From a virus: DNA of 64,000 nucleotides. Within the stretch, counting starts at the first letter, position 1. The number at the start of each line of letters is the position of its first letter. Below, piece by piece: positions 2,444 to 20,270 of the stretch. Where the stretch lies: IMG/VR virus record IMGVR_UViG_3300032304_002285, positions 64,001 through 128,000 of that record; one strand, written 5' to 3'. A program made the position numbers and the translations under genes. A model generated the notes under the pieces. The model had not been told where the DNA came from. It saw nothing but the letters and a program-made list of their open reading frames with translations, and ran no database searches.

Positions 2444-2950
2444 ATGAACAAGGTAAAAATAGCTCAAGAGTTGATTAAGTTGGCCAAGGAATTGGTTGGT
2501 AATTCTTCTAGGACCAAGAAAGCTTACGGTAAAAAGCCGAAGAGTTGGCGTGGAGTTCAAGGCGAATTGAGTTTTGAAGTTGGAGATATGGAGCATCATA
2601 GGGATTCGGGGGTTAGGTCTGCTTATAAGGAAATTGTAAAGTTATTGCCTGAGGGTTCTGAGCCAGGAGATTGGGATATTTTTATTGAATTTGAGAGTAG
2701 TGGTTCTTATTGTCCTGGGCGGTTATCTGGTCCTCCTGAGGATTGTTATCCTGAGGAATCAGAGGATGCGAGAGAGGCAACAAGCATGGAGCTTAGATGG
2801 GCTGGTGATGGGGAAAAGATAAAGAATATTGAGATAAGGCATGGTGCTTCATTTGAAAAAATAGAAGAAGGGTTGTCTGTTCTTATAGAAGGCGTCGAGT
2901 TGAATCATGAGCAAGGATATGATGGTCCTGAGCCAGATGATTGGGATTAA
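2444..2950 (+). CDS. Acidic hypothetical protein with shared N-terminal leader (KIAQELIKLAKELVG)
   Basis: 168-aa ORF with AAGGAG RBS. The leader recurs in other ORFs of this window. Confidence 0.75.
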   Translation: MNKVKIAQELIKLAKELVGNSSRTKKAYGKKPKSWRGVQGELSFEVGDMEHHRDSGVRSAYKEIVKLLPEGSEPGDWDIFIEFESSGSYCPGRLSGPPEDCYPEESEDAREATSMELRWAGDGEKIKNIEIRHGASFEKIEEGLSVLIEGVELNHEQGYDGPEPDDWD

Positions 2951-3011
2951 GTTGTTTAATATTTTTTTGATATTATTCTTTTTGGTATAAAACTTAAAAG
3001 GAGTTTTCGTC

Positions 3012-3263
3012 ATGGATGAGAAAACTATGGTAGCTAAAGAGTTGGTCAAGGTTGCGAGTCTTTTGGTTGCTGAGGAGGGTGAAGCCCCGGAAGCTGAAGA
3101 TGAAGCCTTTGTTCAGAAGTTACGTGACATTCGTACTGGTCTTTTGAGCATTAACAAGAAAAAGAATACACGGTTGAGTGACTACGGGATTGGAGTCATT
3201 CGACCAACGACAAAAGTTCATGAGTTGGTTGATGTCCTTCTCAAGGTTGTAGCTACAAAATAA
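3012..3263 (+). CDS. Hypothetical protein with shared N-terminal leader (MVAKELVKVASLLVA)
   Basis: 83-aa ORF with AAGGAG RBS and the leader motif. Confidence 0.75.
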   Translation: MDEKTMVAKELVKVASLLVAEEGEAPEAEDEAFVQKLRDIRTGLLSINKKKNTRLSDYGIGVIRPTTKVHELVDVLLKVVATK

Positions 3264-3290
3264 GGTAGAGTACAACAAAGAGGTTTGAGA

Positions 3291-3330
3291 GGGACTTAGA
3301 AGGAAAAATCCTCTAAGTCCCTTTTCTTTT
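3291..3330 (+). terminator. Intrinsic terminator
   Basis: GGGACTTAGA/TCTAAGTCCC stem followed by TTTTCTTTT. Confidence 0.75.
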
Positions 3331-3391
3331 TGGTTTGATGGTGGAAATTACAGGGAGGCGAGTATAATAGAATCACAAGGAGAGGTAGTAA

Positions 3392-3715
3392 ATGGTAAAG
3401 AGCAAATCTCAGAAGCAAGTAGAGAGACGTAAGAAGATTGAGCATAACCGAAATGTTATGCAGAATCAGGGAAAGCCTCGTTATCTTCTGTATATCAAGG
3501 TTGACGGTGGTTGGAAAGCTGTGATGAGGTTTAAGACTATTACGGATGTAGATAAGCATTGTGAAAGTATGGAAGATATTCGGAAGAGAAATGCTTCTGA
3601 GTTGGTTGAGGCGAATATTGTTGAGGTGAAGACGGGTAAGGTAATTAGGCATGTTGCGCCTCATAAGGTTAGTGATCCGGCTATGTTGAGTGGATCGTTG
3701 GTGGCGAAGGTTTGA
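3392..3715 (+). CDS. Basic hypothetical protein
   Basis: 107-aa ORF with AGGAGAGG RBS. GGCGAGTATAAT (-10-like) lies upstream. Confidence 0.7.
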   Translation: MVKSKSQKQVERRKKIEHNRNVMQNQGKPRYLLYIKVDGGWKAVMRFKTITDVDKHCESMEDIRKRNASELVEANIVEVKTGKVIRHVAPHKVSDPAMLSGSLVAKV

Positions 3716-3734
3716 AAATAAATTTCAGGAAGTT

Positions 3735-3763
3735 TTGGATTTTCGGGTTCTCGCGGGTAAGAT
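3735..3763 (+). promoter_or_regulatory. Bipartite promoter motif, copy 1 (upstream of the tRNA island)
   Basis: TTGGAT-N17-TAAGAT. The motif recurs at 7738, 9345, 9805 and 11117. Confidence 0.6.
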
Positions 3764-3794
3764 AGGGTGTGACAAGAAGGTTGGTTGTAAGTGT

Positions 3795-3869
3795 TGCGGG
3801 ATATATCAGTGGTAGATTGCTAGCCTCATAAGCTAGATGTCGTGGGTTCGAGTCCCACTCCCGCTACCA
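3795..3869 (+). tRNA. tRNA-Met(CAT); fMet/Met/Ile2 identity unresolved
   Basis: Cloverleaf with anticodon arm CTAGC-CTCATAA-GCTAG, GGTTCGAGTCC T arm and encoded CCA. It has a 1:72 mismatch but lacks the three G-C pairs typical of initiators. Confidence 0.9.
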
Positions 3870-3879
3870 GTTTGAGATT

Positions 3880-3954
3880 CGGGTTGTCGTTTTAACATTT
3901 AAGACACAAGCCATGGGGCTTGAGATGCTGGTGTAAATCCAGCCGACTCGACCA
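3880..3954 (+). tRNA. Degenerate tRNA-Pro(TGG)-like gene
   Basis: Acceptor CGGGTTG/CGACTCG + A + CCA. T arm GCTGG-TGTAAAT-CCAGC. Anticodon arm CAAGC-CATGGG-GCTTG has a 6-nt loop. The D loop lacks GG. Confidence 0.55.
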
Positions 3955-3960
3955 AGTGTT

Positions 3961-3982
3961 GTTCTTTCAAAACTGAATAGTT
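3961..3982 (+). promoter_or_regulatory. rrn boxA/processing-like motif, copy 1
   Basis: GTTCTTTCAAAACTGAATAGTT, 6 nt upstream of tRNA-Ile. Recurs at 4864 and 8441. Confidence 0.55.
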
Positions 3983-3988
3983 CTTTTT

Positions 3989-4062
3989 CGGCATGTAGCT
4001 CACTTGGTTAGAGCACCACCCTGATATGGTGGGGGTAGAAGGTTCGAGTCCTTCCATGCCGA
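3989..4062 (+). tRNA. tRNA-Ile(GAT), CCA not encoded
   Basis: Acceptor CGGCATG/CATGCCG. Anticodon arm CCACC-CTGATAT-GGTGG. Followed by A-CTT. Confidence 0.9.
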
Positions 4063-4078
4063 CTTATTTTCCCTGAAT

Positions 4079-4153
4079 GCCAGCATAGCTCAATGGTAGA
4101 GCACCTTACTTGTAATAAGGATGTCGGGGGTTCAAATCCCTCTGCTGGCTCCA
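4079..4153 (+). tRNA. tRNA-Thr(TGT)
   Basis: Anticodon arm CCTTA-CTTGTAA-TAAGG, canonical D and T arms, CCA. Confidence 0.95.
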
Positions 4154-4207
4154 TTTGCTTTTCTTGGTTTTAGTTCTATTTTGGGCTAAAGCAAATAGGG
4201 GGCGATT

Positions 4208-4846
4208 ATGAGAAGTGGGATGAGTTGTTCTGATGCTGGTAGGCTTGGTAAAGAAAAATCGCTTGCCTTGCAGCAAGCAATGAAACAAGAAAGAATAAAT
4301 AAATACTTAGAAAATCCGAAATTGTGTGGTACGTGTGGAGCAATCATACCATATAATAAAAGAGTAAATAATTTTTGTTCTTCTTCTTGTTTCGCATGCC
4401 ATAACAACAAACAAAGAAGTCTATTAAATCCTTGTGTTAATTTTTGTATGAATTGTGGTAAGGATCTGAAATCAAAAACTCTTTTGTTTTGTAGTGGAAG
4501 TTGTCATAAAAAACATTCACATAATAAATATATAGAGCGGTGGCTTGCTGGAGAAGAGTCTGGCGGTATTGGCAAGGATAAAGATATTACTAGCCATACA
4601 GTTCGTGACTGGGTTTTTAAAAAAAGTGGTGGTAAGTGTTCAGTTTGTGGCGGAAGTGATTGGATGGGCAAGAAGATGCCTTTGATTCTGGATCATATTG
4701 ATGGTCATTCAAAAAACAATCGTCCTGAAAATCTAAGGGCTGTTTGTGGTAATTGTGATATGCAGTTGCCGACATACAAAAGCAAAAACAAAGGAAATGG
4801 AAGGCATTATAGAAGGGAAAGGTATAAGAATGGATTGAGTTATTAG
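4208..4846 (+). CDS. Free-standing HNH endonuclease with Cys-rich zinc-binding repeats
   Basis: CSVCGG...LILDHIDGHSKNNRPENLRAVCGNCD is an HNH motif. There are several CxxC...FCSxxC repeats N-terminal to it. Confidence 0.9.
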   Translation: MRSGMSCSDAGRLGKEKSLALQQAMKQERINKYLENPKLCGTCGAIIPYNKRVNNFCSSSCFACHNNKQRSLLNPCVNFCMNCGKDLKSKTLLFCSGSCHKKHSHNKYIERWLAGEESGGIGKDKDITSHTVRDWVFKKSGGKCSVCGGSDWMGKKMPLILDHIDGHSKNNRPENLRAVCGNCDMQLPTYKSKNKGNGRHYRRERYKNGLSY

Positions 4847-4863
4847 ATTTGTGATTCAATTTA

Positions 4864-4885
4864 GTTCTTTAGTAATTGAATAGTT
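4864..4885 (+). promoter_or_regulatory. rrn boxA/processing-like motif, copy 2
   Basis: GTTCTTTAGTAATTGAATAGTT, 5 nt upstream of tRNA-Ala. Confidence 0.5.
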
Positions 4886-4890
4886 TCTAT

Positions 4891-4967
4891 GGGGCATTAG
4901 CTCAGTTGGCTAGAGCGTTTGGTTTGCATCCAAAAGGCCATCGGTTCGAGCCCGATATGCTCCACCA
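4891..4967 (+). tRNA. tRNA-Ala(TGC)
   Basis: GGGGCAT acceptor with G3:U70. Anticodon arm TTTGG-TTTGCAT-CCAAA. CCA. Confidence 0.95.
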
Positions 4968-5046
4968 GTTTTTGTATCTTAGTTTATTGCCAAAGATGTT
5001 TGCAAGTTAAGCTATATAGCTTATATTCCTAAAAAAGGAGTAAGCC

Positions 5047-5538
5047 ATGCCAACTTGCAAAAGCTGTGGAGATAGATTTCCTACTTGGATCAAGATAGAT
5101 GGAAAGCAGAGATGTTTAAACAATAGAAAGTTTTGTTTAAAATGTTCTCCATTTGGAAGGCACAATACTAGTCCAACTCTTCATGTAGGATGCGAAAAAC
5201 TTTGCAATAAATGTGGTGAAAAAGATCCCAGTAAGTTTTATGGCAATAAGAGGCATATTTGTGGGAAATGCCATGCCAAGTATACTACTGAAAGAGGAAA
5301 ACGTAAAAAACAATTTGTTTGTGAAAAGCTGGGTGGTAAGTGTGTCTCATGTGGATATGATAAATATGTAGGTTCTCTTGATATTCATCATAAAGATCCA
5401 GCAAAGAAGGATTCTAATTTTAGGTCTAAAAGAGGATGGTCTGAAGAAAGAATATTAAAGGAAATAGAAAATTGTATCTTGCTTTGTCGGAATTGTCATG
5501 CAGCTTTTCATGCTGGAGAGTTAGCAATCGGTGTGTAG
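5047..5538 (+). CDS. Free-standing HNH endonuclease
   Basis: CVSCGY...LDIHHKDP...ENCILLCRNCHAAFH. AAGGAG RBS. The last codons overlap the 5' end of tRNA-Pro. Confidence 0.9.
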   Translation: MPTCKSCGDRFPTWIKIDGKQRCLNNRKFCLKCSPFGRHNTSPTLHVGCEKLCNKCGEKDPSKFYGNKRHICGKCHAKYTTERGKRKKQFVCEKLGGKCVSCGYDKYVGSLDIHHKDPAKKDSNFRSKRGWSEERILKEIENCILLCRNCHAAFHAGELAIGV

Positions 5539-5607
5539 CGCAGTTTGGTTTAGCGCGTCTGCCTTGGGCGCAGAAGGTCGGGGGTTCAAATCCCTCCACA
5601 CCGACCA
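5529..5607 (+). tRNA. tRNA-Pro(TGG)
   Basis: Acceptor CGGTGTG/CACACCG. Anticodon arm TCTGC-CTTGGGC-GCAGA. CCA. Confidence 0.95.
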
Positions 5608-5614
5608 TTTTCAT

Positions 5615-5916
5615 GAGGTTTCCAACTTGTGGCTGATTTCATCTTTTGTTCGGGATGAAGGCACTTACAAGAGGAGAACTGTAAGGTCCCAAGTAGGGCA
5701 GGAAGGGTAAGGCTGGGTCAATGCGGGTAAGAGTTTTCCTAACCGCAGTAGCCCGATATCTGGTAAATTAAAACACTGAACAACCAGATATAAGAGTAAA
5801 ATCTCTTCAATGCGGTGATGAACTTGTTGATCAGAGTTCTGAGCATTGTGGCTGAACAACTCGACTTGTTTGAGATGGGTAGGAAAGGTGGTTCCTTTCT
5901 TCTAGTTGGAAACCTC
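5615..5916 (+). ncRNA. Candidate ~300-nt structured ncRNA of unknown family
   Basis: A perfect 13-bp closing stem GAGGTTTCCAACT (5615-27)/AGTTGGAAACCTC (5904-16) encloses at least 6 hairpins. It fills the gap between tRNA-Pro and tRNA-Arg and has no credible ORF. Confidence 0.65.
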
Positions 5917-5924
5917 TCTATTCT

Positions 5925-5996
5925 GCTCCCGTAGTCTAATGGATAGGCACTTGCCTCCTAAGCAAGTCTATGAGAGTTCGATTCTCTCCGGGAGTA
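5925..5996 (+). tRNA. tRNA-Arg(CCT), CCA not encoded
   Basis: Acceptor GCTCCCG/CGGGAGT. Anticodon arm CTTGC-CTCCTAA-GCAAG. Followed by A-CTT. Confidence 0.9.
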
Positions 5997-6049
5997 CTTT
6001 TTGTCTTTTATATTTATGGTCTAATAGGGATAATATTTTAGGAGAGACC

Positions 6050-6526
6050 ATGAAAAAGAATTTGAAGATTGCTGGTGAGATATTAAAGCTTGCTAAGGGT
6101 TTGGTGGGAATGACCAAACAAGAGGCAGATAAAGTCGCTTTTGTCATGAGGGAGTTTCCTAATCATAATAAAGTGAATGATAAGGTTAGGAAGGAAGTAA
6201 AGAAGTATAAGTTTTTAACCTTGGATAACATTAAGAAGTTTGGTCAATCTGCTTCTTTTATGAGAGGCATTGATGATTGGATAGATTATGTGATTTCGCA
6301 AGGTATGGAAAACGTTTATTCAACTAGCGGTTTTGATTATGAAGATGACAAGGATGTTCTCAATGCAATGAAGCATTATGAAGACATGGATTCTGAATTG
6401 TACAAAAAATCCAGAGATGTTTTAGAGGAAAGAGCGACAGATTTGGCTATAAATTCTGTAATGGAAGCACTCTATCAAGAGATTTCTTCTATTGAAAAGG
6501 CCATAGATAGGTCCAAAAAGTTATAA
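6050..6526 (+). CDS. Hypothetical protein with shared N-terminal leader (KIAGEILKLAKGLVG)
   Basis: Start re-assigned to ATG 6050 behind AGGAG, because the longer track ORF overlaps tRNA-Arg. Confidence 0.75.
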   Translation: MKKNLKIAGEILKLAKGLVGMTKQEADKVAFVMREFPNHNKVNDKVRKEVKKYKFLTLDNIKKFGQSASFMRGIDDWIDYVISQGMENVYSTSGFDYEDDKDVLNAMKHYEDMDSELYKKSRDVLEERATDLAINSVMEALYQEISSIEKAIDRSKKL

Positions 6527-6532
6527 TTAGTT

Positions 6533-6606
6533 GCGGGTTTAGCATAGTGGTAATGTGCCACCTTGCCAAGATGGTTACGCGGGTTCGACTCCCGCCATCT
6601 GCTCCA
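6533..6606 (+). tRNA. tRNA-Gly(GCC)
   Basis: Anticodon loop TTGCCAA, T arm GCGGG-TTCGACT-CCCGC, TCCA end. Confidence 0.9.
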
Positions 6607-6616
6607 AGGTTTTTAT

Positions 6617-6694
6617 TCTCCGGTAGCTCAATTGGCCAGAAGCACTTCACTCTTAATGAAGGGGTTGGGGGTTCAAGTCCCTCCCGGAGAACCA
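6617..6694 (+). tRNA. tRNA-Lys(CTT)
   Basis: Anticodon arm CTTCA-CTCTTAA-TGAAG. CCA. Confidence 0.95.
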
Positions 6695-6708
6695 ATTTTT
6701 GTTTGTAT

Positions 6709-6785
6709 GCTCTGGTAGCTCAATTGGTTAGAGCACCAGCCTTTTAAGTTGGTTATTGGGAGTTCGAGTCTCCCCCAGAGCACCA
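6709..6785 (+). tRNA. tRNA-Lys(TTT)
   Basis: Anticodon arm CCAGC-CTTTTAA-GTTGG. CCA. Confidence 0.95.
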
Positions 6786-6792
6786 ATTTTAT

Positions 6793-6866
6793 TCCCTCGT
6801 GGTGTAATGGTAGCACGAAACACTGTTAATGTTTCTGTCTTGGTTCAAATCCAGGCGAGGGAGCCA
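6793..6866 (+). tRNA. tRNA-Asn(GTT)
   Basis: Acceptor TCCCTCG/CGAGGGA, G73, loop CTGTTAA, CCA. Confidence 0.95.
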
Positions 6867-6869
6867 AAT

Positions 6870-7010
6870 ACCTACATGCTCAATTGCCAGTCTGACGCAT
6901 GAGGTTTTAATGACTGGCTAAAGTCTGGGTGTATTAGGAAACTTACGGTGATGGAACCCAGAACAGAGGGTAAAGCCTCTGCCAAAACTTCAAATAAAAG
7001 GTTTTGGTAA
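6870..7010 (+). ncRNA. Candidate structured RNA (four consecutive hairpins)
   Basis: GCCAGTC/GACTGGC, TCTGGGT/ACCCAGA, CAGAGG/CCTCTG and CCAAAAC/GTTTTGG lie between tRNA-Asn and tRNA-His. Confidence 0.45.
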
Positions 7011-7034
7011 ACCGTTTTAGAGATTTCTATGGAT

Positions 7035-7110
7035 GGTGGTTTTGTTGTAAAGGAAGCATGGATGGTTGTGAACCATCAGGTGTAGGGTTCAAGTCCCACA
7101 TTCCACCCCA
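7035..7110 (+). tRNA. tRNA-His(GTG), weak acceptor and T stems
   Basis: Anticodon arm GATGG-TTGTGAA-CCATC. G-1/C73-compatible ends and CCA. Some mismatches in the acceptor stem. Confidence 0.8.
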
Positions 7111-7130
7111 AGTTTTTAGCGTAGGTGTTT

Positions 7131-7207
7131 GGGGGTATAGCTCAATTGGCCAGAGCATCGGTTTGTCACGCCGAAGGTTGCGGGTTCGATTCCCGCTACT
7201 CCCGCCA
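7131..7207 (+). tRNA. tRNA-Asp(GTC)
   Basis: Anticodon arm TCGGT-TTGTCAC-GCCGA, G73, CCA. Confidence 0.95.
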
Positions 7208-7216
7208 GTTTTATAA

Positions 7217-7293
7217 GGGATTGTAGCTCAATTGGATAGAGCATCTGATTACGAATCAGAAGGTTGGGAGTTCAACTCTCCCCATTCCCACCA
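7217..7293 (+). tRNA. tRNA-Arg(ACG)
   Basis: Anticodon arm TCTGA-TTACGAA-TCAGA. CCA. Confidence 0.95.
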
Positions 7294-7298
7294 GATTT

Positions 7299-7370
7299 GT
7301 CCCGTTCGATCAATGGTAAGGTCATTAGGTTCTCAGCCTAGGGATAGCGGTTCGACTCCGCTACGGGATA
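7299..7370 (+). tRNA. tRNA-Glu(CTC), CCA not encoded
   Basis: Acceptor GTCCCGT/ACGGGAT, loop TTCTCAG. Followed by A-CTT. Confidence 0.9.
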
Positions 7371-7386
7371 CTTTAAGAAGGGATTT

Positions 7387-7460
7387 GACCCGTTGGAGGA
7401 AATGGATAACTCACTTGGTTTTCATCCAAGAGATTAGCGGTTCAACCCCGCTACGGGTCA
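7387..7460 (+). tRNA. tRNA-Glu(TTC), CCA not encoded
   Basis: Acceptor GACCCGT/ACGGGTC. Anticodon arm CTTGG-TTTTCAT-CCAAG. Followed by A-CTT. Confidence 0.9.
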
Positions 7461-7467
7461 CTTTAAC

Positions 7468-7718
7468 GCCACTAAGGGACTAGGTTGCAAGTAGTCCAGA
7501 GTGGAAATCATCCAGGATCTTGGATAATCTCTTTACATAGGGATTATAGAAGAGAATGGGTGTAGTCGGAACTTGTGGGCAGGAAAGTTGGGCATACTCT
7601 TCGCCATCCGACTCTAAATAATTCACGTAATGTCACGAAAGCAGGGTACGGCTGTATAGCCCGATGGAGATTGTCCTGCTTGCTGGAGGGTGATGGTCCT
7701 AGCCCCTCCAATTTTTTT
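7468..7718 (+). ncRNA. Candidate ~240-nt structured RNA ending in a terminator hairpin
   Basis: Stems GGACTA/TAGTCC, ATAATCTCT/AGGGATTAT, AGTCGGA/TCCGACT and AAGCAGG/CCTGCTT, then TGGAGGG/CCCTCCA + T7. Confidence 0.45.
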
Positions 7719-7737
7719 CAAAACTTTTTTAGGATCT

Positions 7738-7769
7738 TTGGATTTAGAAGTAGTTCTGGGTGATATAAT
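7738..7769 (+). promoter_or_regulatory. Bipartite promoter motif, copy 2
   Basis: TTGGATTT...GGGTGATATAAT upstream of the 7806 ORF. Confidence 0.6.
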
Positions 7770-7805
7770 GATGTAAAGAGAACGTAGTGAGAAGGGGATT
7801 CGAGA

Positions 7806-8084
7806 ATGAGTGAAAGTGTTGAAGATCTGAAGCGTCAGGTTGCCCAGTGGAAATCGGTTGCGGCTTATCTGGCTGAGTGTCATGCTGCTTCTGCTGAGAC
7901 TGTTGCTGAGCAGAAGAAGTCTTCCAAGTATGAGAAGAAGCGCCATGCTGAGATTTGCAAGAAGGCGGCTATGATGTTGAAGCATGGGGATCTTGTTGGG
8001 GTAGTTGATCGGAGGTATGCCAAAGAAGGTTTCATTGAAGTGATTGAGCGTTGTGAGTTGGCGAAGGTTGAGTGTGAGAAGTAA
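7806..8084 (+). CDS. Hypothetical protein
   Basis: 92-aa ORF behind the promoter motif with a GAAGGGG RBS. Helical and coiled-coil-like. Confidence 0.7.
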   Translation: MSESVEDLKRQVAQWKSVAAYLAECHAASAETVAEQKKSSKYEKKRHAEICKKAAMMLKHGDLVGVVDRRYAKEGFIEVIERCELAKVECEK

Positions 8085-8095
8085 GTTTTGATAGT

Positions 8096-8169
8096 GCAGG
8101 TATCGTATAGTGGCAATACCCTAGTTTTCCAAACTAGCGCGGTGGGTTCGATTCCCACTACCTGCTCCA
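8096..8169 (+). tRNA. tRNA-Gly(TCC)
   Basis: Anticodon arm CTAGT-TTTCCAA-ACTAG. TCCA end. Confidence 0.95.
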
Positions 8170-8181
8170 AAGGTTTAAGAT

Positions 8182-8328
8182 TGGTCGGCAAGGTTTGGAT
8201 GTTCTGTGAAAGCTGACACTTGACTGTTATCAGATAGGATCGCAACCTGTTTGAGTCAAGATGCCTGGGGAACAGGCTTCAGGCGGAACGCAAGAATATC
8301 ACGGGTTCAAATCCCGTCCGATCAACCA
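8182..8328 (+). ncRNA. 147-nt tRNA-shaped RNA with a ~70-nt structured insert at the anticodon position
   Basis: Acceptor TGGTCGG/CCGATCA + A + CCA. T arm ACGGG-TTCAAAT-CCCGT is identical to that of tRNA-Leu(TAA). Variable-arm-like GCG-GAA-CGC. Internal stems CTTGACT/AGTCAAG and GCCTG/CAGGC. Confidence 0.65.
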
Positions 8329-8332
8329 ATTT

Positions 8333-8417
8333 TGAGGTCTTAATCGTACGGTGTTGAGCAGAACACAGAGGCGATGAATCCCATAGAACTGCTAATTCTA
8401 TGATGGGAAAGACTTCA
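8333..8417 (+). ncRNA. Candidate three-way-junction RNA with complementary (kissing) loops
   Basis: Closing stem TGAGGTCTT/AAGACTTCA. Hairpin loops GAGCAG and CTGCTAA are complementary (AGCAG/CTGCT). Confidence 0.5.
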
Positions 8418-8440
8418 TCTAAGTTTTGAGTAAGAGGTTA

Positions 8441-8462
8441 GTTCTTTAAAAATTGAATAGTT
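8441..8462 (+). promoter_or_regulatory. rrn boxA/processing-like motif, copy 3
   Basis: GTTCTTTAAAAATTGAATAGTT, 4 nt upstream of tRNA-Val. Confidence 0.55.
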
Positions 8463-8466
8463 CTGT

Positions 8467-8543
8467 GGGCAGTTAGCTCAGTTGGTTAGAGCATTTGGTC
8501 TACACCCAAAATGTCGGGGGTTCGAATCCCTCACTGCCTACCA
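8467..8543 (+). tRNA. tRNA-Val(TAC)
   Basis: Anticodon arm TTTGG-TCTACAC-CCAAA. CCA. Confidence 0.95.
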
Positions 8544-8554
8544 TTTTAAGTATT

Positions 8555-8639
8555 GGCCGGGTGGCGAAAAGGCAGACGCAACAGACTTAAAATCTGTCGG
8601 ATTTTATCCGTACGGGTTCAAATCCCGTCCCGGCTACCA
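8555..8639 (+). tRNA. tRNA-Leu(TAA)
   Basis: Anticodon arm ACAGA-CTTAAAA-TCTGT, long variable arm, CCA. Confidence 0.95.
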
Positions 8640-8642
8640 ATT

Positions 8643-8860
8643 TCAAATAAGTGGTCCCTGCTTGATCGTCCCAGTGATAAAAGCAAAGATCATTAAAAAT
8701 TGCTGCCACTTATTTGAGAACTTTTCGGCTTTCTTGTAAAGCCGATGGTGGAGGCGGTTAGGGAAACCTAATTGCCCTAGCGACACATGCTGGACTAGTG
8801 AGGCTGTAGTCTCATGAAACAAGTTGTGTGGCTTTCCGGTAAGAAGTAACCGGGCTTTCG
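8643..8860 (+). ncRNA. Candidate structured RNA(s) between tRNA-Leu and tmRNA
   Basis: 12-bp perfect stem TCAAATAAGTGG/CCACTTATTTGA, TCGGCTTT/AAAGCCGA, GGCGGTTAGG-GAAA-CCTAATTGCC and further hairpins. Confidence 0.45.
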
Positions 8861-8867
8861 TTCAATT

Positions 8868-9271
8868 GGGCCTGACATGGTTTCGATCAAGTGAATGAGG
8901 GTTAGGATTGCATGCAGAGGATGATCGTTGGCCTCTTAAAACTTCGATCAAGTAAGTAACTGCGGAAACTCTTGAGTTCCCCGCTATGCCCATTGCTGCC
9001 TGATCTAGGGTAGTAAAGGGTATGGTCTAAGCCATCAGCAAAGTCTATAAGGCTGATGGGGTTGTCTTAATGATTCGCTCTTGAGACACACAGAATGATA
9101 GGCTGGCTTCAAGGTGATGCCGGATAGCTAAGAAGCGAGAGTTCTGACGGCTGGATGCGCTTAACCTGCTGTGAGGGGAAAAGGCATTGAGAAAAACAAA
9201 TCACAGACAAGCATGTAGAGTCTTGCCGGAAAGCATTTGAGACCGGGGTTCGACTCCCCGCAGGTCCACCA
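8868..9271 (+). ncRNA. ssrA: tmRNA
   Basis: 5' GGGCCTGACATGGTTTCGA. 3' T arm GGTTCGACTCC followed by CAGGTCC-A-CCA with a G3:U70 pair. The tag ORF at 8962-9003 follows TAACT and encodes AETLEFPAMPIAA*. Confidence 0.92.
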
Positions 9272-9344: not shown

Positions 9345-9372
9345 TTGGATTTTCGAGATTGTTGGGTAATAC
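9345..9372 (+). promoter_or_regulatory. Bipartite promoter motif, copy 3
   Basis: TTGGAT-N16-TAATAC(AT). Confidence 0.65.
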
Positions 9373-9804: not shown

Positions 9805-9832
9805 TTGGATTTTGATTGCTTGATGGTAATAC
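9805..9832 (+). promoter_or_regulatory. Bipartite promoter motif, copy 4
   Basis: TTGGAT-N16-TAATAC(AT). Confidence 0.65.
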
Positions 9833-9880: not shown

Positions 9881-10498
9881 ATGTTGAACATTTGCTTGTT
9901 GAAAATCTTGGATAAAAACAATCCGACTCCCGCTATTGATGCATTGATGAAGGTTGGATTGAGCAATGTTGAGGCTCAAGATGCTGTTGTTGAGCTTTCG
10001 GGGTCATTTCTTTCTTTGGTTGCTGTTAGGACTGAAGATATCTGGCCTGTTGATTTGAGTGAGTTTTTCGTTTTTGAGTTTATTCAAAGGGTTGAAATTA
10101 CTCTTGAGACAGCTTTGTTTCCCAAGGAAAAGATTCATGGGATTCAGGCTATCCGTGCTGCCACGGGAATGGGCTTGGTGGATTCCAAGGATACGATTGA
10201 GAATCTTTTTATGGGAGTGCATACCAAGATTCAGTCTAAGCCTGAAGAGGTTGAGAATTTGAGGAAATGGTTTACTCTTACTGCTGAGGAGTTGGGTCCG
10301 GTTCCTCAGCCTTATGTTCCTGGTCGGGTTGTTCAAAAAAACACGATTAGCCATTGTGTTGGTAGTAGTCATAAAGAAGAGGCAATGGAGCACATGTCTG
10401 CCTTTGCCAAGGAGCTTTTGGATGAAAAGAAATGGGAAGCTGCTCAGAACATTTGCAACTTGTTGAGCATTTTGAAGACTGTTGAAGAATATCAATAA
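9881..10498 (+). CDS. Ribosomal protein bL12 (L7/L12) CTD-like domain protein, paralog 1
   Basis: EKIHGIQAIRAATGMGLVDSKDTIE resembles the bL12 CTD pattern KI.VIK.VRA.TGLGLKEAK.LVE. The C-terminal helix pair is shared with the paralogs. Confidence 0.7.
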   Translation: MLNICLLKILDKNNPTPAIDALMKVGLSNVEAQDAVVELSGSFLSLVAVRTEDIWPVDLSEFFVFEFIQRVEITLETALFPKEKIHGIQAIRAATGMGLVDSKDTIENLFMGVHTKIQSKPEEVENLRKWFTLTAEELGPVPQPYVPGRVVQKNTISHCVGSSHKEEAMEHMSAFAKELLDEKKWEAAQNICNLLSILKTVEEYQ

Positions 10499-10512
10499 GG
10501 AGCATTGAGGAA

Positions 10513-11100: not shown

Positions 11101-11116
11101 AAAGCTTGTGAATGGT

Positions 11117-11144
11117 TTGGATTTCTGTCTTTTTTGGGTAATAC
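11117..11144 (+). promoter_or_regulatory. Bipartite promoter motif, copy 5
   Basis: TTGGAT-N16-TAATAC(AT). Confidence 0.65.
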
Positions 11145-11933: not shown

Positions 11934-11976
11934 AAGCCGGGAATCCTTAATTGGATATCCCGGCTTTCTTTTTTTT
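11934..11976 (+). terminator. Intrinsic terminator
   Basis: AAGCCGGGA/TCCCGGCTT followed by a T tract. Confidence 0.75.
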
Positions 11977-12016
11977 AATATTTGAGGTTTTTATAAGAAA
12001 TGGTTTTGGAGATTTT

Positions 12017-13567
12017 ATGTTTAATAAGTCTATGGTTGCCAAAGAGCTATTGAAAATATCCAGCTTGATTTTAGGTGGTAGGGGCTGGAGTTGGAGCAAT
12101 TACGGGGCATGGGTTTTACCAGATGGTAAGGTATTGCCTGTTGCTGTTGAGTTTACTCATTATGATGTTGCGGCTGAATATTTTCAGAAAAAAGATCCTA
12201 AGCATTTCAATAACATTTATTCCTTGGATCAGTTTTTCAATGAGGGTTGGGTTAGGGTGGTTTTTAGGCAGTCGTTGAGTGTAGAGATTAAGAGCCGGGT
12301 TTATCCTGCTCAGAGAGAAGTTTTATTGAAAATGGTTGAGGATTATCCAAGGCGGAATTTTTACATAGATGACTATCCCTCTTCGATTGTGACTGAGGAT
12401 GCTGAGGAGGCTAGGGATAGGATAAGGGCTGCAAGTCTTAAGAAGGCTACCGAGATTAAGTGGAGTGATTATGGGGCATGGATTTTACCTGATGGTAAGG
12501 TTTTAAGAGTTGGGTATCAAGAGCACATGGAGACTGCTGAGGAGTATTTTAATAAACACAAGATTGAGATTGAGACCAATCCTTATGTTGAGGCTTTCAA
12601 GAGGGATTGGGTAAGGGTTGTCTTTAAGGAGATGGGGATAGAGATGGGGAGTAATCTTACTTCCAAGCAGAGATATGTATTGGAAGATATGGTTGATGAT
12701 AATCCTTATACGTCAAAAGTGTTTTTTGATAGGAATGGTACTACTAATATTAATTTCAGCACGGATGATAAAGAGTCGGCAATCAATAAGATTAGGGCTG
12801 CTGGTTTGGTTAATGCTGCTTCATTTCATTTTACAGATTATGGGGCATGGATATTGCCGACTGGGGGAGTGTTGAGGGTAGAGGATCATCAACAACATGG
12901 CGCTGTTGCCTCTAAATATTTAGCAGGTAAGGGCATTGAGGTTGATAGTTATAATAGTTACAGTGAGGCTTTCAAAGAGGGGTTGATTCGGATTCAATAT
13001 GGATCTGATTTGAATATTGAGATCAATAGTCGTATTACGCCAAGGCAAAGGAATACTCTTCTTGCCATGGTAGATTCTTTCCCGAAGAAAACGGTTATGA
13101 TAGACAAGGATATTTATACGACTCATTCTCAGACTTTTGCTTTAGAGAATAAGGAAGATGCGAAAGAGAGAATAAGGTCTGCTAGTATGAGGGTTGCTAA
13201 GGATTGGAGTTTTCGGGATTACGGGGCATGGGTATTGCCTAATGGAGATGTTTTACGGGTCAAGGGTTTTTTTGAGCATTCGGAGGTTGCTGGTAGTTAT
13301 ATGAAATTCAATGATATTGTTTTTAAGGGAAGTCCTTATGATAAGGCGTATAAGATGGGATGGGTTCGTGCTGTATTTCTTCCTGATTTAAATTTTGACA
13401 TTCAAAAGGGTTTAACTTCTCAACAGCGTTCGGTTCTCACTGACATGTTAGATGATTATCCTAAAGAGACTGTTATTATTTCTAGACCATCTAGAGAGAT
13501 ACAATTTGATGAGAAAGAAAAGGCTTTGAATTTACTTAGGGTTGCTTCTTTAAAAAAAGTTGGATAA
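12017..13567 (+). CDS. Leader-bearing protein with four tandem ~125-aa repeats
   Basis: Start ATG 12017 (MFNKSMVAKELLKISSLILG). Four units of YGAW.LP.G.VL.V...H...GWVRV...QR..L..M, each ending RIRAAS-like. Confidence 0.8.
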   Translation: MFNKSMVAKELLKISSLILGGRGWSWSNYGAWVLPDGKVLPVAVEFTHYDVAAEYFQKKDPKHFNNIYSLDQFFNEGWVRVVFRQSLSVEIKSRVYPAQREVLLKMVEDYPRRNFYIDDYPSSIVTEDAEEARDRIRAASLKKATEIKWSDYGAWILPDGKVLRVGYQEHMETAEEYFNKHKIEIETNPYVEAFKRDWVRVVFKEMGIEMGSNLTSKQRYVLEDMVDDNPYTSKVFFDRNGTTNINFSTDDKESAINKIRAAGLVNAASFHFTDYGAWILPTGGVLRVEDHQQHGAVASKYLAGKGIEVDSYNSYSEAFKEGLIRIQYGSDLNIEINSRITPRQRNTLLAMVDSFPKKTVMIDKDIYTTHSQTFALENKEDAKERIRSASMRVAKDWSFRDYGAWVLPNGDVLRVKGFFEHSEVAGSYMKFNDIVFKGSPYDKAYKMGWVRAVFLPDLNFDIQKGLTSQQRSVLTDMLDDYPKETVIISRPSREIQFDEKEKALNLLRVASLKKVG

Positions 13568-15175: not shown

Positions 15176-15188
15176 GAGGGTTAAAACA

Positions 15189-15336: not shown

Positions 15337-16572
15337 ATGAACAGTACTAGGAAAAGAGTTGCGGCTGAACTTCTTAAGATGGCTCGTGAGTTAACTTCTT
15401 TTGAGTTTGATACAGAAGATGCTCTTAAGAAATATTTGCATGATCATCCTGGTGCAGACAGAAGCCACCATTCTGTAAAGACCAAAGAGAATAAGCCGAC
15501 TACTACTGAAAACCCTTCTACTCAAAAACAGGAAAAGCCAGAACAGGTTCCTTCTCCCAAGAAGGAGGCTCCGGTTGAGGAGAAAAAGGATACTGTGGTT
15601 GAGACAGAGGATATTCTTCCGAAGGGTGGTTTTTTGAAGGAAGAGGAATCTTCTTTGCCGAAGAAGACAAAGCAGGAAGTGAGTGATCCTGATCAACTCT
15701 TCAAGCAGGCTGAAGAGACTAGAGAGCTTATGTTTGATTGGCTTGATAGGGGTAAGGGAATTGACAAGGCGATTGGAGCCAGGACTTATGATTCTAGTCC
15801 TGATAATGAAGAATTGGACAAGCCGGGTCCAGTTGTTTTGATTGTTCACAATAAGGAGAGAGAGAAGTCAGAGAAGAAGGTAAAGAAGAATTATAAGGGA
15901 GATTGGTCTGAGTTGTTGGATGTTGTTAGAGCATCTGTTGCTGTTGATGGTATTGATGATGTTCCTGGGGTAATGGATGCCTTGAGGAAGTCGGGGATGA
16001 AATTAGCCAAGAAGCCTAAGGATAGGTTTTCTGAGCCAACTGATGTTGGGTATAGGGATATTCTTTTAAGTGTGAAATATCCCAATGGGCATGTTGGTGA
16101 ATTGCAGGTTCATGTAAAGCCTGTTCTTAAGGCTAAGAGTATTGGTCATAAATATTATGAAAACATTAGACCATTTGAGGAGAAGGCAGAAGCAGAGGGT
16201 AGAACCGTGATGACTCCTGAGGAGCAAAAGGAGATAGATCATTGGAATGGGTTAATGAAAGATGTCTATGGAAAGGCTTGGGATGAGGTTATAAAGAAGA
16301 AGAAGGCGGGTGGGGCTAAGGTTGAAAACAAAGAGCCGGGGAAAGTAGAGGCATCAATGGTTGCTTCTCAGGTCTCATATTATGAATATGAGGATAAACC
16401 GGCAATGTGGGTTCAGGGTCATTTCCCTCAGTATTTGATGAAGGGAGAGATGGCTTATACTTATGATTTGTTTAAATTTTTCACTCTTGTAAAAACGATT
16501 AACAAGTCAAAGTTTGATGAGTTGATGGAAGAGCACAGACAAGAGCACATGTCTGATAAATCTAACAAGTAA
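15337..16572 (+). CDS. RelA/SpoT-type (small alarmone synthetase-like) nucleotidyltransferase with shared N-terminal leader
   Basis: KEREKSEKK..NYKGDWSELLDVVRAS...KDRF..P...GYRDILL...GHVGELQVH...GHKYYE follows the RelA_SpoT SYNTH motif order. Leader RVAAELLKMARELTS. Confidence 0.7.
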   Translation: MNSTRKRVAAELLKMARELTSFEFDTEDALKKYLHDHPGADRSHHSVKTKENKPTTTENPSTQKQEKPEQVPSPKKEAPVEEKKDTVVETEDILPKGGFLKEEESSLPKKTKQEVSDPDQLFKQAEETRELMFDWLDRGKGIDKAIGARTYDSSPDNEELDKPGPVVLIVHNKEREKSEKKVKKNYKGDWSELLDVVRASVAVDGIDDVPGVMDALRKSGMKLAKKPKDRFSEPTDVGYRDILLSVKYPNGHVGELQVHVKPVLKAKSIGHKYYENIRPFEEKAEAEGRTVMTPEEQKEIDHWNGLMKDVYGKAWDEVIKKKKAGGAKVENKEPGKVEASMVASQVSYYEYEDKPAMWVQGHFPQYLMKGEMAYTYDLFKFFTLVKTINKSKFDELMEEHRQEHMSDKSNK

Positions 16573-17970: not shown

Positions 17971-17990
17971 ATCTGTTTCTGGAGTCTAAG

Positions 17991-18242
17991 ATGGATAAAA
18001 AAGAAATTTTGTATAGGACCAGCGATTTATATTTCGGTGCGTATCTATGCAGCTTAGATATTCCATTGATGACTTCGGAAAAAGAGCATGAGGGAGATTT
18101 CAGCAAGGTTGTCTTTGTTTTTAAAATCCCTCAGGAAGACTTAGCGAGGCTCAAGGCTTCTTATTTTGGCGGGAGTGGGACCATTCGAGCCAGGAAGTTT
18201 GTTGACAGTCTGAGAAGCCTTAAAAGCCTTTGTCATACTTAA
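17991..18242 (+). CDS. DUF5659-like small protein
   Basis: YRTSDLYFGAYLCSLDIPL resembles the DUF5659 pattern, from memory. Confidence 0.5.
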   Translation: MDKKEILYRTSDLYFGAYLCSLDIPLMTSEKEHEGDFSKVVFVFKIPQEDLARLKASYFGGSGTIRARKFVDSLRSLKSLCHT

Positions 18243-18265
18243 CTTTTGTTTAAATAAACTTCTTC

Positions 18266-18292
18266 AAGCCCCGGATAAAACCGGGGCTTTTT
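18266..18292 (+). terminator. Intrinsic terminator
   Basis: AAGCCCCGG/CCGGGGCTT followed by a T run. Confidence 0.8.
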
Positions 18293-18340
18293 ATTTATTG
18301 ATAAAGTTTTGTTTTGTAAAAGAGGGTAAGGTTTAGAATT

Positions 18341-19135
18341 ATGGCATACTATCCTGGGACATATATCACTACGGGTGTAGCAGGTAGTTCAAACTACAAT
18401 GATCTTGTGGATAATTATTTAACCCCAAGATTGTTGACGTTTAGGCAAATTATTATTAATGATGAGCCTGCTGTTTTAAAGCCAGACAAGGTTACTTGGA
18501 AAACTACTTATGGGAATTGGAATCAGGGTTCTGACCTTTTTGTTAGGAAAAATGGAACTGTTATTAGTTCAGCAGGGGTTACAAATATTGATTATAGTCA
18601 TGGGTGTTTTCGGGCTAATCCGGTAGATGTTGGATTAGATGGAAAGTCTAGTGACACGGTTGAGGTTACATACGAGTGGGATTATTTCCCTGTTATTGTT
18701 TTAAAAAATTTTTTAATGCAATCGGTTCAGATTGTGAATACTAGTGCTTGGGGTTCTGCGACTTCTTATGAGATAGATACGATGCCTGGATACTGGAAGG
18801 GTGTTGTTACTGATTTGGCATTTGCATTAGCGATAGAAAGAATTTTACTTGATTATGATTTGTGGAAGTGGAGATTAGTTTACGCCATTGGTCCTGGGGA
18901 CGTAGAATCAAGCGGTGGTGATATTGTGGGTCAATTACAGACTCTTAAGCAGAATGCTGAAGAGAGGGCTTATCGTACTCTTGAGAATGAGAAGTTTAAG
19001 ATGGGGAATAGAGTATCTGTTCCTACTGTTCATTATTACGATTCTGTTCGTGGTATGGGTACAAGTGCTGGAAGGCATGGTATTCCTTTTGTAGGTGGAA
19101 GATTACGGGGATGGACTCCCAATCGCATAATGTAG
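18341..19135 (+). CDS. Putative virion (head-completion/neck) protein
   Basis: First gene of the structural operon. The VEVTYEWDY beta-strand followed by helical ...DLAFALAIER is reminiscent of head-tail adaptors. Confidence 0.45.
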   Translation: MAYYPGTYITTGVAGSSNYNDLVDNYLTPRLLTFRQIIINDEPAVLKPDKVTWKTTYGNWNQGSDLFVRKNGTVISSAGVTNIDYSHGCFRANPVDVGLDGKSSDTVEVTYEWDYFPVIVLKNFLMQSVQIVNTSAWGSATSYEIDTMPGYWKGVVTDLAFALAIERILLDYDLWKWRLVYAIGPGDVESSGGDIVGQLQTLKQNAEERAYRTLENEKFKMGNRVSVPTVHYYDSVRGMGTSAGRHGIPFVGGRLRGWTPNRIM

Positions 19136-19148
19136 GGAATTTTATTTT

Positions 19149-19451
19149 ATGTCAAAAGATTCGGATATTTTTGGTGAGATAAAAGAAATTAGGAAGATGA
19201 TTTCTGGTGCTAGTTCTTTGTTGGCTATTAGGCAGGAAGTCTCAAAGGTTATGAAGTCGGGATTTTTGGTGATGGATGGAAGGCATCATGTTGCGGGGAA
19301 TGGGTATGACGTTGTTGTTAAGTGTGGGAGTGAGGAGGAGTCAGTAGCTAGACGATTGAGGGCATCAATTCCTGATGCTAAAATTGAGAGAATTACATCT
19401 GGGGTTTTGGGGATTAAGACTGCAAGAAGAATGAAAAACTTCAAGATATAG
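19149..19451 (+). CDS. Hypothetical protein (weak leader-like N-terminus)
   Basis: 100-aa ORF in the structural operon. Confidence 0.65.
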   Translation: MSKDSDIFGEIKEIRKMISGASSLLAIRQEVSKVMKSGFLVMDGRHHVAGNGYDVVVKCGSEEESVARRLRASIPDAKIERITSGVLGIKTARRMKNFKI

Positions 19452-19463
19452 GTTGGAGGCTTT

Positions 19464-19952
19464 ATGGCTGTGGATATATCTCCGGTTACGGGACAATTGT
19501 TTTACTCGGGCTCTTGGGCTGAGATAAAAGAGATCCTTCGTACTCTGAATATTGGGGATGGGAAATTGGCTCAAGTTACACAAGAAATGACGAATAATTA
19601 TCAGGAGATGGTAGACAGAGAGATAGATGCTCTTCTTGAACCATTGTACCATGTTCCTTTAAGGGCAATGAATCAGGTACAGCCTGACGGTGTAACTAGG
19701 AAAGTTTTCCCTGGTGATATTCGGCGTTTAGCTAAATATTGGGTTTCGGGTTACATGCTTTTGAGTCAGTTTCAGAATCTTTCTCAGAATGTAACGGATC
19801 AGGCTCAAAATTATATTGAGGATGCAAAGAAGGCGATGTATTCGATTAGTAGATGGAATCATAGGATTCCGGGTCAAGAGAGGAAGAGTAGTTTGTCTAG
19901 GACTATGCCACCTAATATGCAACCTTCATCAATTCCTGAGCCTAATTTTTAA
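19464..19952 (+). CDS. Putative head-tail adaptor/neck protein
   Basis: REIDALLEPLYHVPL...IRRLAKYWVSGY resembles the gp36/gp15-like adaptor pattern. GGAGG RBS. Confidence 0.5.
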   Translation: MAVDISPVTGQLFYSGSWAEIKEILRTLNIGDGKLAQVTQEMTNNYQEMVDREIDALLEPLYHVPLRAMNQVQPDGVTRKVFPGDIRRLAKYWVSGYMLLSQFQNLSQNVTDQAQNYIEDAKKAMYSISRWNHRIPGQERKSSLSRTMPPNMQPSSIPEPNF

Positions 19953-19955
19953 TCT

Positions 19956-20270
19956 ATGAAAAGAATAGCCAAAGAACTGGGTGAGGTAAGCAACTCTCTG
20001 ATGGGATTGCTCGATTTTACTTTTGATGGGATTGAGCAAGGGGATTATGATTTTATAAATAGGATTTGTGGGGAGATAGATGATTTTGCGGATAGGATTA
20101 GAAGGAATGAGGGATTGGATATGTCAGTTGAGAAAGTGTGTGGCGGGGATTCTACTTCTGTAAAGATTCGCATGACAGATCATGAGGCATTGAAAGCGAT
20201 AAAAGAAGAGTTGGCGAGGAAGCTGACAAAGATGAGTAAGAAAAAGAATCTTAATTTACGGGTTGGTTGA
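19956..20270 (+). CDS. Hypothetical protein with leader-like N-terminus (MKRIAKELGEVSNSLMG)
   Basis: 104-aa ORF. Confidence 0.65.
   Translation: MKRIAKELGEVSNSLMGLLDFTFDGIEQGDYDFINRICGEIDDFADRIRRNEGLDMSVEKVCGGDSTSVKIRMTDHEALKAIKEELARKLTKMSKKKNLNLRVG

Follow-up and report, generated by a model that had tools for sequence, protein, structure and literature searches.

The 64,000-nucleotide stretch of DNA analyzed here (the window) comprises bases 64001–128000 of a single 180,758-bp IMG/VR virus record, and genome positions below follow the numbering of that record. The record is linear, with a CheckV completeness estimate of 51%, carries all of its genes on the + strand and has a strong GC skew. 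The window contains 17 tRNA genes and a transfer-messenger RNA (tmRNA) gene first and a neck–tail block after them, and five of its open reading frames (ORFs) encode proteins with unrelated bodies that begin with the same short helical peptide, which we term the tag. A first-pass annotation made from the sequence alone had pointed out these five leaders, and all of them proved to be in frame, to start 1–7 residues past an ATG and to have GGAG-type ribosome-binding sites. The five ORFs, together with two from which weaker versions had been reported, are as follows.

2444..2950, + strand: tagged ORF of 168 residues, tag IAQELIKLAKELVG at nt 2459–2500, no Pfam family.
3012..3263, + strand: tagged ORF of 83 residues, tag VAKELVKVASLLVA at nt 3030–3071.
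6050..6526, + strand: tagged ORF of 158 residues in the tRNA island, tag IAGEILKLAKGLVG at nt 6068–6109.
12017..13567, + strand: tagged ORF of 516 residues, tag VAKELLKISSLILG at nt 12035–12076.
15337..16572, + strand: tagged ORF of 411 residues, tag VAAELLKMARELTS at nt 15358–15399, weak RelA/SpoT-like match.
19149..19451, + strand: conserved neck-operon protein of 100 residues with an N-terminal helix that is only tag-like.
19956..20270, + strand: ORF of 104 residues with a decayed tag, IAKELGEVSNSLMG at nt 19965–20006, translationally coupled in the neck operon.

The bodies of the tagged proteins did not align with one another and their likeness ended after the tag (alignment A1), in agreement with what had been proposed from inspection. 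The gene that had been placed inside the tRNA island is indeed there, as ORF 6050 is flanked by tRNA-Arg (5925–5997) and tRNA-Gly (6533–6606). The body of ORF 12017 is a ~125-residue domain ('YGAWVLPDGKV') present four times. This domain has the pattern 'W..YGAW[VI]LP.G..L.V ... H...A..Y', occurs in single copies in L002:16027–16431 and L002:14742–15458, and matched no family other than EpmC, and that weakly; each repeat unit closes with a helix that resembles the tag (..RIRAASLKK..). In ORF 15337 the tag is followed by a second short module, FEF..Y..DHP.AD...H.V (nt 15400–15477), and the whole gene is an insertion between two genes that adjoin each other in relatives of this phage. The weaker versions fared unevenly. 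That of ORF 19956 is a decayed true tag, and the syntenic ortholog in a relative (L013) has a canonical one with the N-terminus MSVR-IARELLKIARKLV. The 19149 protein, 39% identical to L117:7383–7658, was rejected as a bearer of a portable tag, being a conserved neck-operon protein. The third, 14316, was rejected because its score with a position-specific scoring matrix (PSSM) was not tag-like, and BLASTP did not bear out its by-eye likeness to a gene of the head module.

Across the 180.8-kb record the pattern M-x4-[IVL]A-x-EL[LV]K[IL]AK-x-L[VT][AGS] opens 15 unrelated + strand ORFs. A six-frame PSSM scan identified 15 N-terminal tags (genome positions 7848, 8590, 19724, 33608, 34033, 34782, 36063, 37384, 66459, 67030, 70068, 76035, 79358, 83965 and 159653) and one exact C-terminal tag, which forms the final 14 residues of a 460-residue GNAT protein (genome 39540). 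Two weaker internal or near-C-terminal PSSM matches were located at genome 33033 and 129921, and the scan gave no tag match in the other five frames of the record. The strict regular expression of the first-pass annotation matched the record 6 times and a looser version 12 times, in all cases on the + strand and N-terminally, 1–7 residues past an ATG with a GGAG-type site. When the 284 called proteins were shuffled, there were 0.000 (strict) and 0.004 (loose) matches per shuffle, and given that the first ten residues make up 5.7% of positions, the probability of all 12 loose matches falling there is ~1e-15.

The residue frequencies of the tag were taken from 147 N-tagged proteins, from which the 14-residue consensus is [IV]-A-[KR]-E-L-[LV]-K-[IL]-A-K-[ES]-L-[VT]-[AGS], with Ala repeated at a seven-residue interval.

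Tag positions 1–4: I/V/L (96%) at 1, A (98%) at 2, K/R/S/Q at 3 and E (93%) at 4.
Tag positions 5–8: L (97%) at 5, L/V at 6, K (81%) at 7 and I/L/V at 8.
Tag positions 9–11: A (97%) at 9, K/R (91%) at 10 and E/S/D at 11.
Tag positions 12–14: L (95%) at 12, V/T at 13 and A/G/S (96%) at 14.

The segment from Met1 to the tag, M-[ND]-[NK]-x-K, is exactly five residues long in 117 of the 147 proteins. At positions +1 to +6 past the tag there was no conserved residue, and no Glu at the junction, among the 147, and the composition there was like that of the bodies (disorder-promoting residues 0.64 versus 0.61). Hydrophobic residues at 1, 5, 8 and 12 follow a heptad pattern and are flanked by the Ala residues at 2 and 9, the hydrophobic moment is 0.44–0.72, and the tag, which lacks aromatic residues, has a net charge of 0 to +2. 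As judged from these properties, the tag has the character of a helix in tight contact with a specific partner, rather than of a membrane anchor. Its sole invariant protease-like site is the A-x-E within it. The AlphaFold model of a protein with two tags (P0005) was of low confidence (predicted local distance difference test score, pLDDT, of 44) and unusable for pairing, and the tag was helical in it.

It is the peptide that is under selection. Where tags have the same residue at the same position, the codon was identical at a frequency of 0.413, compared to 0.381 expected from codon usage, and because these values are so close, the peptide and not the DNA or RNA must be what is conserved, and the copies must be old. 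A nucleotide-level element was rejected on the same grounds, synonymous sites being random. A degron was rejected by reasoning, as the ssrA-like LVA end would leave the N-terminal copies unexplained.

The portability of the tag is most apparent from the variety of proteins that bear it. One is a CCA-adding enzyme (PolyA_pol + HD) with which 412 phage homologs, and likewise the cellular CCA-adding enzymes, align only from its residue 28–41; the nearest phage homolog, that of the 735-kb phage LR756501, is extended differently at its N-terminus, and the ortholog P0025 and that of the relative G015 retain the tag. Other bodies in this genome are the GNAT protein, tagged at its C-terminus, and the four-fold repeat protein, along with weak matches to RelA/SpoT-like, M91-like and ParB-like proteins. 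Pfam searches with 141 tagged proteins named few bodies, among which were ART-PolyVal (4e-18), S-AdoMet lyase, DpnI-like, LRV and zinc ribbons. Packaged effectors that are injected, including ADP-ribosyltransferases (ARTs) and GNATs encoded among late genes, are an established theme (PMC5512222), and the domain matches support a correspondence of the ART-PolyVal and S-adenosylmethionine (SAM) lyase proteins tagged in relatives, and of the GNAT protein here, to known types of packaged or injected effector.

Two further short modules accompany the tag. The second module, [FM]-x-F-P..Y..[DE]HP.A....H.V, lies directly C-terminal to the tag and is then followed by unrelated bodies; besides window 15400–15477 it occurs in P0049 (three times), P0001, P0036, L026, L032 and L050. 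The third, Y.YDP.H...P.GG[WY]..T..GWS, travels with the tag as well (e.g. P0024 and P0092). It is present twice in a 440-residue SAM-lyase-domain protein (L007:464–1783, genome 162464–163786), which has a tag-like helix, LLASELRRVKRLLA, close to its C-terminus and whose gene has the promoter-like box of the tagged genes.

When 50 tags were made into a profile and 1.84 billion representative proteins were searched with it, 461 clusters matched at E<=1e-3, and the best 150 of the 461 matches mostly started at residue 1. In the ~150 top matches the PSSM located 125 copies at the N-terminus, 6 at the C-terminus and 69 internally. A Met of their own was retained by 32 of the 69 internal copies, and those with their own M-x4 start (e.g. 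P0001 and P0010) are, on the evidence of that start, fused neighbors. Tags were present at both ends of P0005, P0070, P0092, P0102 and P0170, and the 76-residue proteins P0170 and P0056 consist of little beyond two tags and a charged linker. Metagenome contigs can be densely tagged: a 10-kb stretch of a 338-kb contig (L062) carries 15 tags, N-terminal in 13 cases, and L021 has 11 within 7 kb. The tag-rich contigs include one of 271 kb. P0052, with nine tag-like stretches, was rejected as an S-layer-type repeat protein. These data show the tag to be restricted to protein termini; the strictly N-terminal location anticipated in the first-pass annotation held for 12/12 loose matches in this genome and did not extend to the C-terminal and internal copies that exist in addition.

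The tag is spread across a clade of uncultured giant phages. Searches of 185,579 prokaryote species genomes returned 31 pattern matches, all of them false tags, including a recurrent match in Chthoniobacter that is the C-terminal helix of an Mrp/NUBPL ATPase. A loose nucleotide pattern found 63 metagenome loci, ~17 of which were true tags, with the remainder internal helices of housekeeping enzymes. Among GenBank phages there was no match at E<=10 to a 20-residue consensus tag (tblastn), nor to window 1–25000 (megablast) or to the tube protein (tblastn). In IMG/VR, single-protein searches with two tagged proteins gave no match, a back-translated exact AKELLKIAKEL pattern gave 0 and a looser pattern 2, both false. 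A full-text literature search for tag strings found no paper. Relatives were defined as 18 IMG/VR records retrieved by the tube-like protein of this phage (22251..23345, + strand, 364 residues, ESM feature score 0.97), which also served as the anchor for mapping tags; a neck protein retrieved one of these records too. Of these, 17 were scanned, and tags were present in 15 (for instance 27 in G015, 19 in G017, 14 in G003 and 13 in G004).

In the present genome the 25 kb ahead of the tube gene, 14% of the record, hold 6 of the 16 tags. The same was true of the relatives: 72 of 115 tags were no more than 25 kb upstream of the tube gene versus 33 expected if evenly spread, a count that treats arrayed, non-independent tagged genes as independent, and 11 of 15 genomes exceeded expectation. 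The neck backbone (14672/16640/17674/17991/18341/19464/20267/21395/22251) is kept in L105, L013 and L117, with 33–58% identity where measured, and tagged genes interrupt it at sites that differ from phage to phage. Here these are 15337 and 19956; in L105 five tagged genes, four N-terminal (one weak) and one C-terminal, lie between conserved neck genes; and in L013 there is a canonical tag at the site equivalent to the decayed tag of 19956.

Two relatives, G013 and G015, extend into the head genes. Both encode a 286-residue protein (L117:1016–1873 and L125:6801–7658) that is, on the basis of 1929 homologs, the JGI names of several of them and PF25209/PF05065, identified as an HK97 major capsid protein. 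It has no long propeptide. Between G013 and G015 it is 91% identical, and their tube proteins are 44% and 56% identical to that of this phage, which makes it the sole head protein seen with a conservation to match that of the tag. Its homologs, on contigs of up to 477 kb, have 70–100% identity among the 120 matches listed, which is exceptional for the capsid protein of a phage. Upstream of the capsid gene are a gene of 153/164 codons, one of 354/375 codons and one for an acidic low-complexity protein of 242/233 residues with helical ends (L124:15946–16671 and L125:9456–10154), which is poorly conserved and looks like a scaffold candidate. Further upstream in G015 there follow a 102-residue protein whose N-terminus is scaffold-like by eye and whose final 14 residues are a canonical tag, a conserved 354-residue protein and a 178-residue N-tagged protein. 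The tagged CCA enzyme of G015 is encoded ~9 kb upstream of the capsid gene, and the head block of G015 has three tagged genes.

Two other proteins of G013 deserve mention. A 71-residue protein of the head module (L124:13730–13942) has a tag-like helix, MNIAEEIAKIAELIAEA..., and then a very basic Lys-rich tail, and may be an internal protein that binds DNA. About 15 kb upstream of the capsid gene is encoded a fusion of a type IB topoisomerase with a SprT-like domain (L124:1057–2622), possibly an enzyme carried in the virion; in G001, an ORF that lies as an insertion between neck genes (L105:8415–9734) resembles it by eye.

Of modest weight is the regulatory pattern in this genome, in which the dispersed tagged genes are separate transcription units, with a terminator hairpin and T-run followed by a box, TT[GAT]ATATTT[GA], 37–61 nt before the start codon. 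There are six intergenic copies of the box in the record, five of which are followed by tagged genes and the sixth by the gene for the 440-residue SAM-lyase-domain protein. The box was rejected as a general signal for tagged genes, as those of relatives are in tight arrays without intergenic DNA. Two other classes of promoter-like elements, both strand-specific, are almost never ahead of tagged genes. Class 1, TTGGATTT-N12-GGTAATAC(A)TAGATG, has ~17 sites, ahead of many small genes and of three tandem paralogs at 9881–11758 (205, 195 and 198 residues, with a common C-terminal tail ...NLL(S/G)ILK(T/N)VE(E/D)YQ). A class 1 site precedes 9881, 11162 and the 118-residue gene 9422, and 10513, 14 nt after 9881, is without one. 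Class 2, GGTATAAT, has 24 sites, every one of them on the + strand, ahead of replication genes and arrays of tiny genes. The box sites and other features of the window are listed below.

2407..2416, + strand: promoter-like box TTGATATTTG, 37 nt ahead of the start of 2444, with a terminator hairpin and T-run before it.
2967–2974, 6007–6016 and 11975–11984: similar promoter-like boxes.
18298–18305: relaxed box TTGATAAA, ahead of 18341, the first neck gene.
9345–9372, 9805–9832, 11117–11144 and 48082–48089: example class 1 and class 2 sites.
18341..19135, + strand: first gene of the neck–tail operon, 264 residues, head–tail adaptor-like (a lead only), kept in relatives.
25586: minor tail protein match, neck–tail block.
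27053: ORF of 2216 residues, neck–tail block.
37332 and 41465: tail fiber and baseplate matches, neck–tail block.

The tRNA island spans 3795–9271, the tag peptide of the phage tmRNA is AETLEFPAMPIAA, and two Cys-rich HNH-like ORFs (4208–4846 and 5047–5538) are interspersed among the tRNAs along with the one tagged gene. Replication genes are located 3' of the neck–tail block and comprise those for a DnaB-like protein, primase, SNF2 helicase with inteins, RecA, a 5'-3' exonuclease and DnaE. The SNF2-type helicase (with apparently two) and the large subunit of ribonucleotide reductase contain LAGLIDADG homing-endonuclease inteins (48118–52005; L007:13612–17415). No terminase, portal, capsid or prohead-protease gene, and no gp23-type capsid protein, was found in the sequenced half of the genome, and sequence searches of PHROGs and PDB gave no names for the neck genes. 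Directly downstream of a cluster of seven tagged genes (genome 33–39.6 kb) is a gene for a CobT-type vWA protein (L003:4703–6862, genome 40703), and likewise downstream is one for a CbbQ/NorQ-type MoxR AAA+ ATPase (L003:9586–10863, genome 45586), the pair spanning genome 40703–46866.

The proposal in the first-pass annotation was that the tag is a portable address for loading cargo into the prohead, cut near its final small residue. The portable nature of the tag, its conservation as a peptide, its presence throughout the lineage and its enrichment in the head–neck block all stand; the predicted cut is not supported, as positions +1 to +6 are unconserved and there are C-terminal, two-ended and tag–linker–tag copies. 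The property common to all tags is thus docking rather than cleavage at the junction. That so many unrelated proteins carry one conserved docking helix further implies a single conserved partner, and it is the placement of the tagged genes that indicates the head-assembly pathway. We therefore suggest that the tag serves as a docking helix by which a variable cargo is brought into the prohead of the assembling head, an interpretation with, in our judgment, about an even chance of being correct. A clade of huge phages would have fused this helix to either end of unrelated, fast-changing proteins, which may be co-expressed late with the virion genes, judging from gene position, and would all bind the one conserved partner in the assembling head, travel in the virion and be delivered with the DNA. 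The partner would be a head component, either the 286-residue HK97 capsid protein or the acidic scaffold-like protein. Release might occur through a cut at the invariant A-x-E, the only candidate for cleavage because it matches the A-x-E motif at which SPN3US head proteins are processed (PMC5694885); such a cut would break the helix and would serve C-terminal tags too.

A number of observations weigh against this interpretation. Many tagged genes of this genome are far from the virion genes: those at 7.8, 8.6, 19.7 and 33–39.6 kb adjoin arrays of tiny genes of early type, and another is at 159.6 kb. The 58-kDa CCA-adding enzyme would be an unusual virion cargo, and cross-linking or self-association would account for the tag–linker–tag mini-proteins no less well than loading as cargo. 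G018, the most distant relative, has no tags, and G013 carries the capsid protein yet has merely 3 tags in 202 kb. To these must be added the non-independence of arrayed genes in the enrichment count. Finally, no prohead protease was found in the sequenced half-genome (S77 and S78) or in five relatives, although the absence of S77 from the relatives is weak evidence because the S77 control matched nowhere in one scan of them.

Several of the same observations would be accommodated if the helix docked on a phage-encoded hub outside the virion, so as to concentrate or mature proteins in the infected cell; the MoxR-type AAA+/vWA pair and a compartment for replication or assembly are candidates for such a hub. 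Such a hub would be in keeping with the tagged genes amid non-structural genes, with the vWA (40703) and AAA+ (45586) genes after the 33–39.6 kb cluster, and with a CCA-adding enzyme and a GNAT that would function in the cytoplasm. Against it, tags are enriched in and inserted into the head–neck block over 15 relatives; moreover, no compartment gene was identified and the vWA/AAA adjacency was seen in one genome only, and we consider this explanation unlikely.

Alternatively, the tags might bind each other as a short, tight coiled coil to form mixed oligomers or a condensate, cross-linked by the two-tag proteins, and a core of this kind could still reach the head. The heptad positions 1, 5, 8 and 12 with Ala at 2 and 9, the hydrophobic moment and near-neutral charge, the proteins with two-ended tags and the 76-residue proteins with two tags and a charged linker are all compatible with this, and two reports describe aggregation or condensation of cargo by encapsulation peptides (PMC7221423, PMC12339742). 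However, an invariant Glu and Lys, and a distance from Met1 fixed at five residues, suit a specific receptor better than generic bundling, and the P0005 model was too poor to reveal pairing; self-association appears quite improbable to us.

A conserved host component, whether hub protein or membrane, on which diverse early effectors are gathered would fit the many bodies that resemble host-takeover or anti-defense enzymes, as well as the promoter-like box that the SAM-lyase-domain gene shares with the tagged genes. The near-zero net charge and lack of aromatics are unlike membrane-binding helices, though, the tag is nearly identical in relatives from very different samples, tags lie within structural operons, and none of the 31 pattern matches in prokaryote genomes was a real tag; a host target is thus very unlikely.

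Least probable by our estimate is a strict T4-type leader, which would sit at the N-terminus, bind the scaffold core and be cut off in full by the prohead protease after L-[VT]-[AGS]. In its favor are the T4 precedent (PMC3012670, PMC5694885) and the N-terminal position of most copies at a fixed distance from Met1. Against it are the lack of anything conserved past the tag, the functional-looking copies at the extreme C-terminus and in pairs, and the failure to find a T4-type protease (sequenced half-genome and five relatives) or a gp23-type capsid (sequenced half-genome), the 286-residue HK97 capsid of the relatives having no long propeptide.

Returning to the docking helix that would load cargo into the prohead, its closest precedent in role is the capsid-targeting sequence (CTS) of T4, and in form the encapsulation peptides of bacterial microcompartments, both by analogy. 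The internal proteins of T4 are highly diverse with the CTS alone in common, and the CTS, a propeptide of 10–20 residues removed by gp21, encapsidates them into the scaffolding core (PMC3012670, PMC5694885). As with the CTS of IPI–III and Alt, a short terminal peptide is the sole common part of diverse, fast-changing proteins, and enzymes that modify the host are represented in both sets (Alt in T4 and, here, an ART among the tagged proteins of a relative). Beyond A-x-E, the tag has no apparent sequence likeness to the T4 leader, a further point against a strict T4-type leader. Unlike the CTS, the tag is also C-terminal, paired and in linker-only proteins, has no conserved cleavage site at the junction, and is on far more genes (at least 16 in half a genome and 27 in one fragment). 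The head type here is also different, with the 286-residue HK97 capsid and no homologs of gp21 and gp23 found, and packaging, known for T4, is here a prediction.

Encapsulation peptides are amphipathic helices of ~18 residues that occur at either terminus and bind the shell (PMC4594438), and they promote cargo coalescence according to two reports (PMC7221423, PMC12339742). Those of PduP, PduD, EutC and CcmN resemble the tag in being helices of 15–20 residues, at either end of unrelated enzymes, with a non-conserved joining sequence (PMC4594438). Theirs have only a hydrophobic pattern in common, whereas the tag is near-invariant at A2, E4, L5, A9 and L12, and the compartment here would be a phage head; no microcompartment shell proteins turned up in general Pfam scans, which were not aimed at them. 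Encapsulin cargo-loading peptides are terminal and dock cargo to the inner face of a ~270–290-residue HK97-fold shell protein. The relatives' capsid, of the HK97 type and 286 residues, is thus a candidate partner by likeness to encapsulins, from which the tag differs in having a helical K/E/L/A pattern rather than an extended Gly/hydrophobic motif. Lastly, the propeptides of phiKZ-like phages (SPN3US and phiKZ) are N-terminal targeting sequences cut after Glu at A/S-x-E, and the tag has an invariant A-x-E (PMC5694885). They are mostly >100 residues and specific to paralog families, unlike a single portable 14-mer, and no related protease was found here.

From these likenesses a more specific scheme can be drawn, possible in its parts and, taken whole, doubtful: the tag would be the phage counterpart of encapsulin and microcompartment cargo peptides, binding the inner face of the 286-residue HK97 capsid protein or the acidic scaffold, such that a clade of ~350-kb phages loads dozens of interchangeable effectors from either end, with two-tag mini-proteins cross-linking an internal core and a cut at A-x-E releasing the cargo.

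Relative to the first-pass annotation, the analysis has placed the tagged genes within the head–neck–tail block and located the capsid and scaffold-like genes of relatives, and with these and a tag of 14 residues the proposal is easily testable. If it is true, the tag would be a compact address label, usable at either end of a protein, for loading foreign proteins into capsids, and would allow the 'first-strike' proteome of these phages to be read from sequence alone. If the tag does load the head, this widespread clade would inject a large and swappable arsenal of enzymes acting on tRNA, nucleotides and proteins, together with likely anti-defense factors, that far exceeds the handful of internal proteins of T4.

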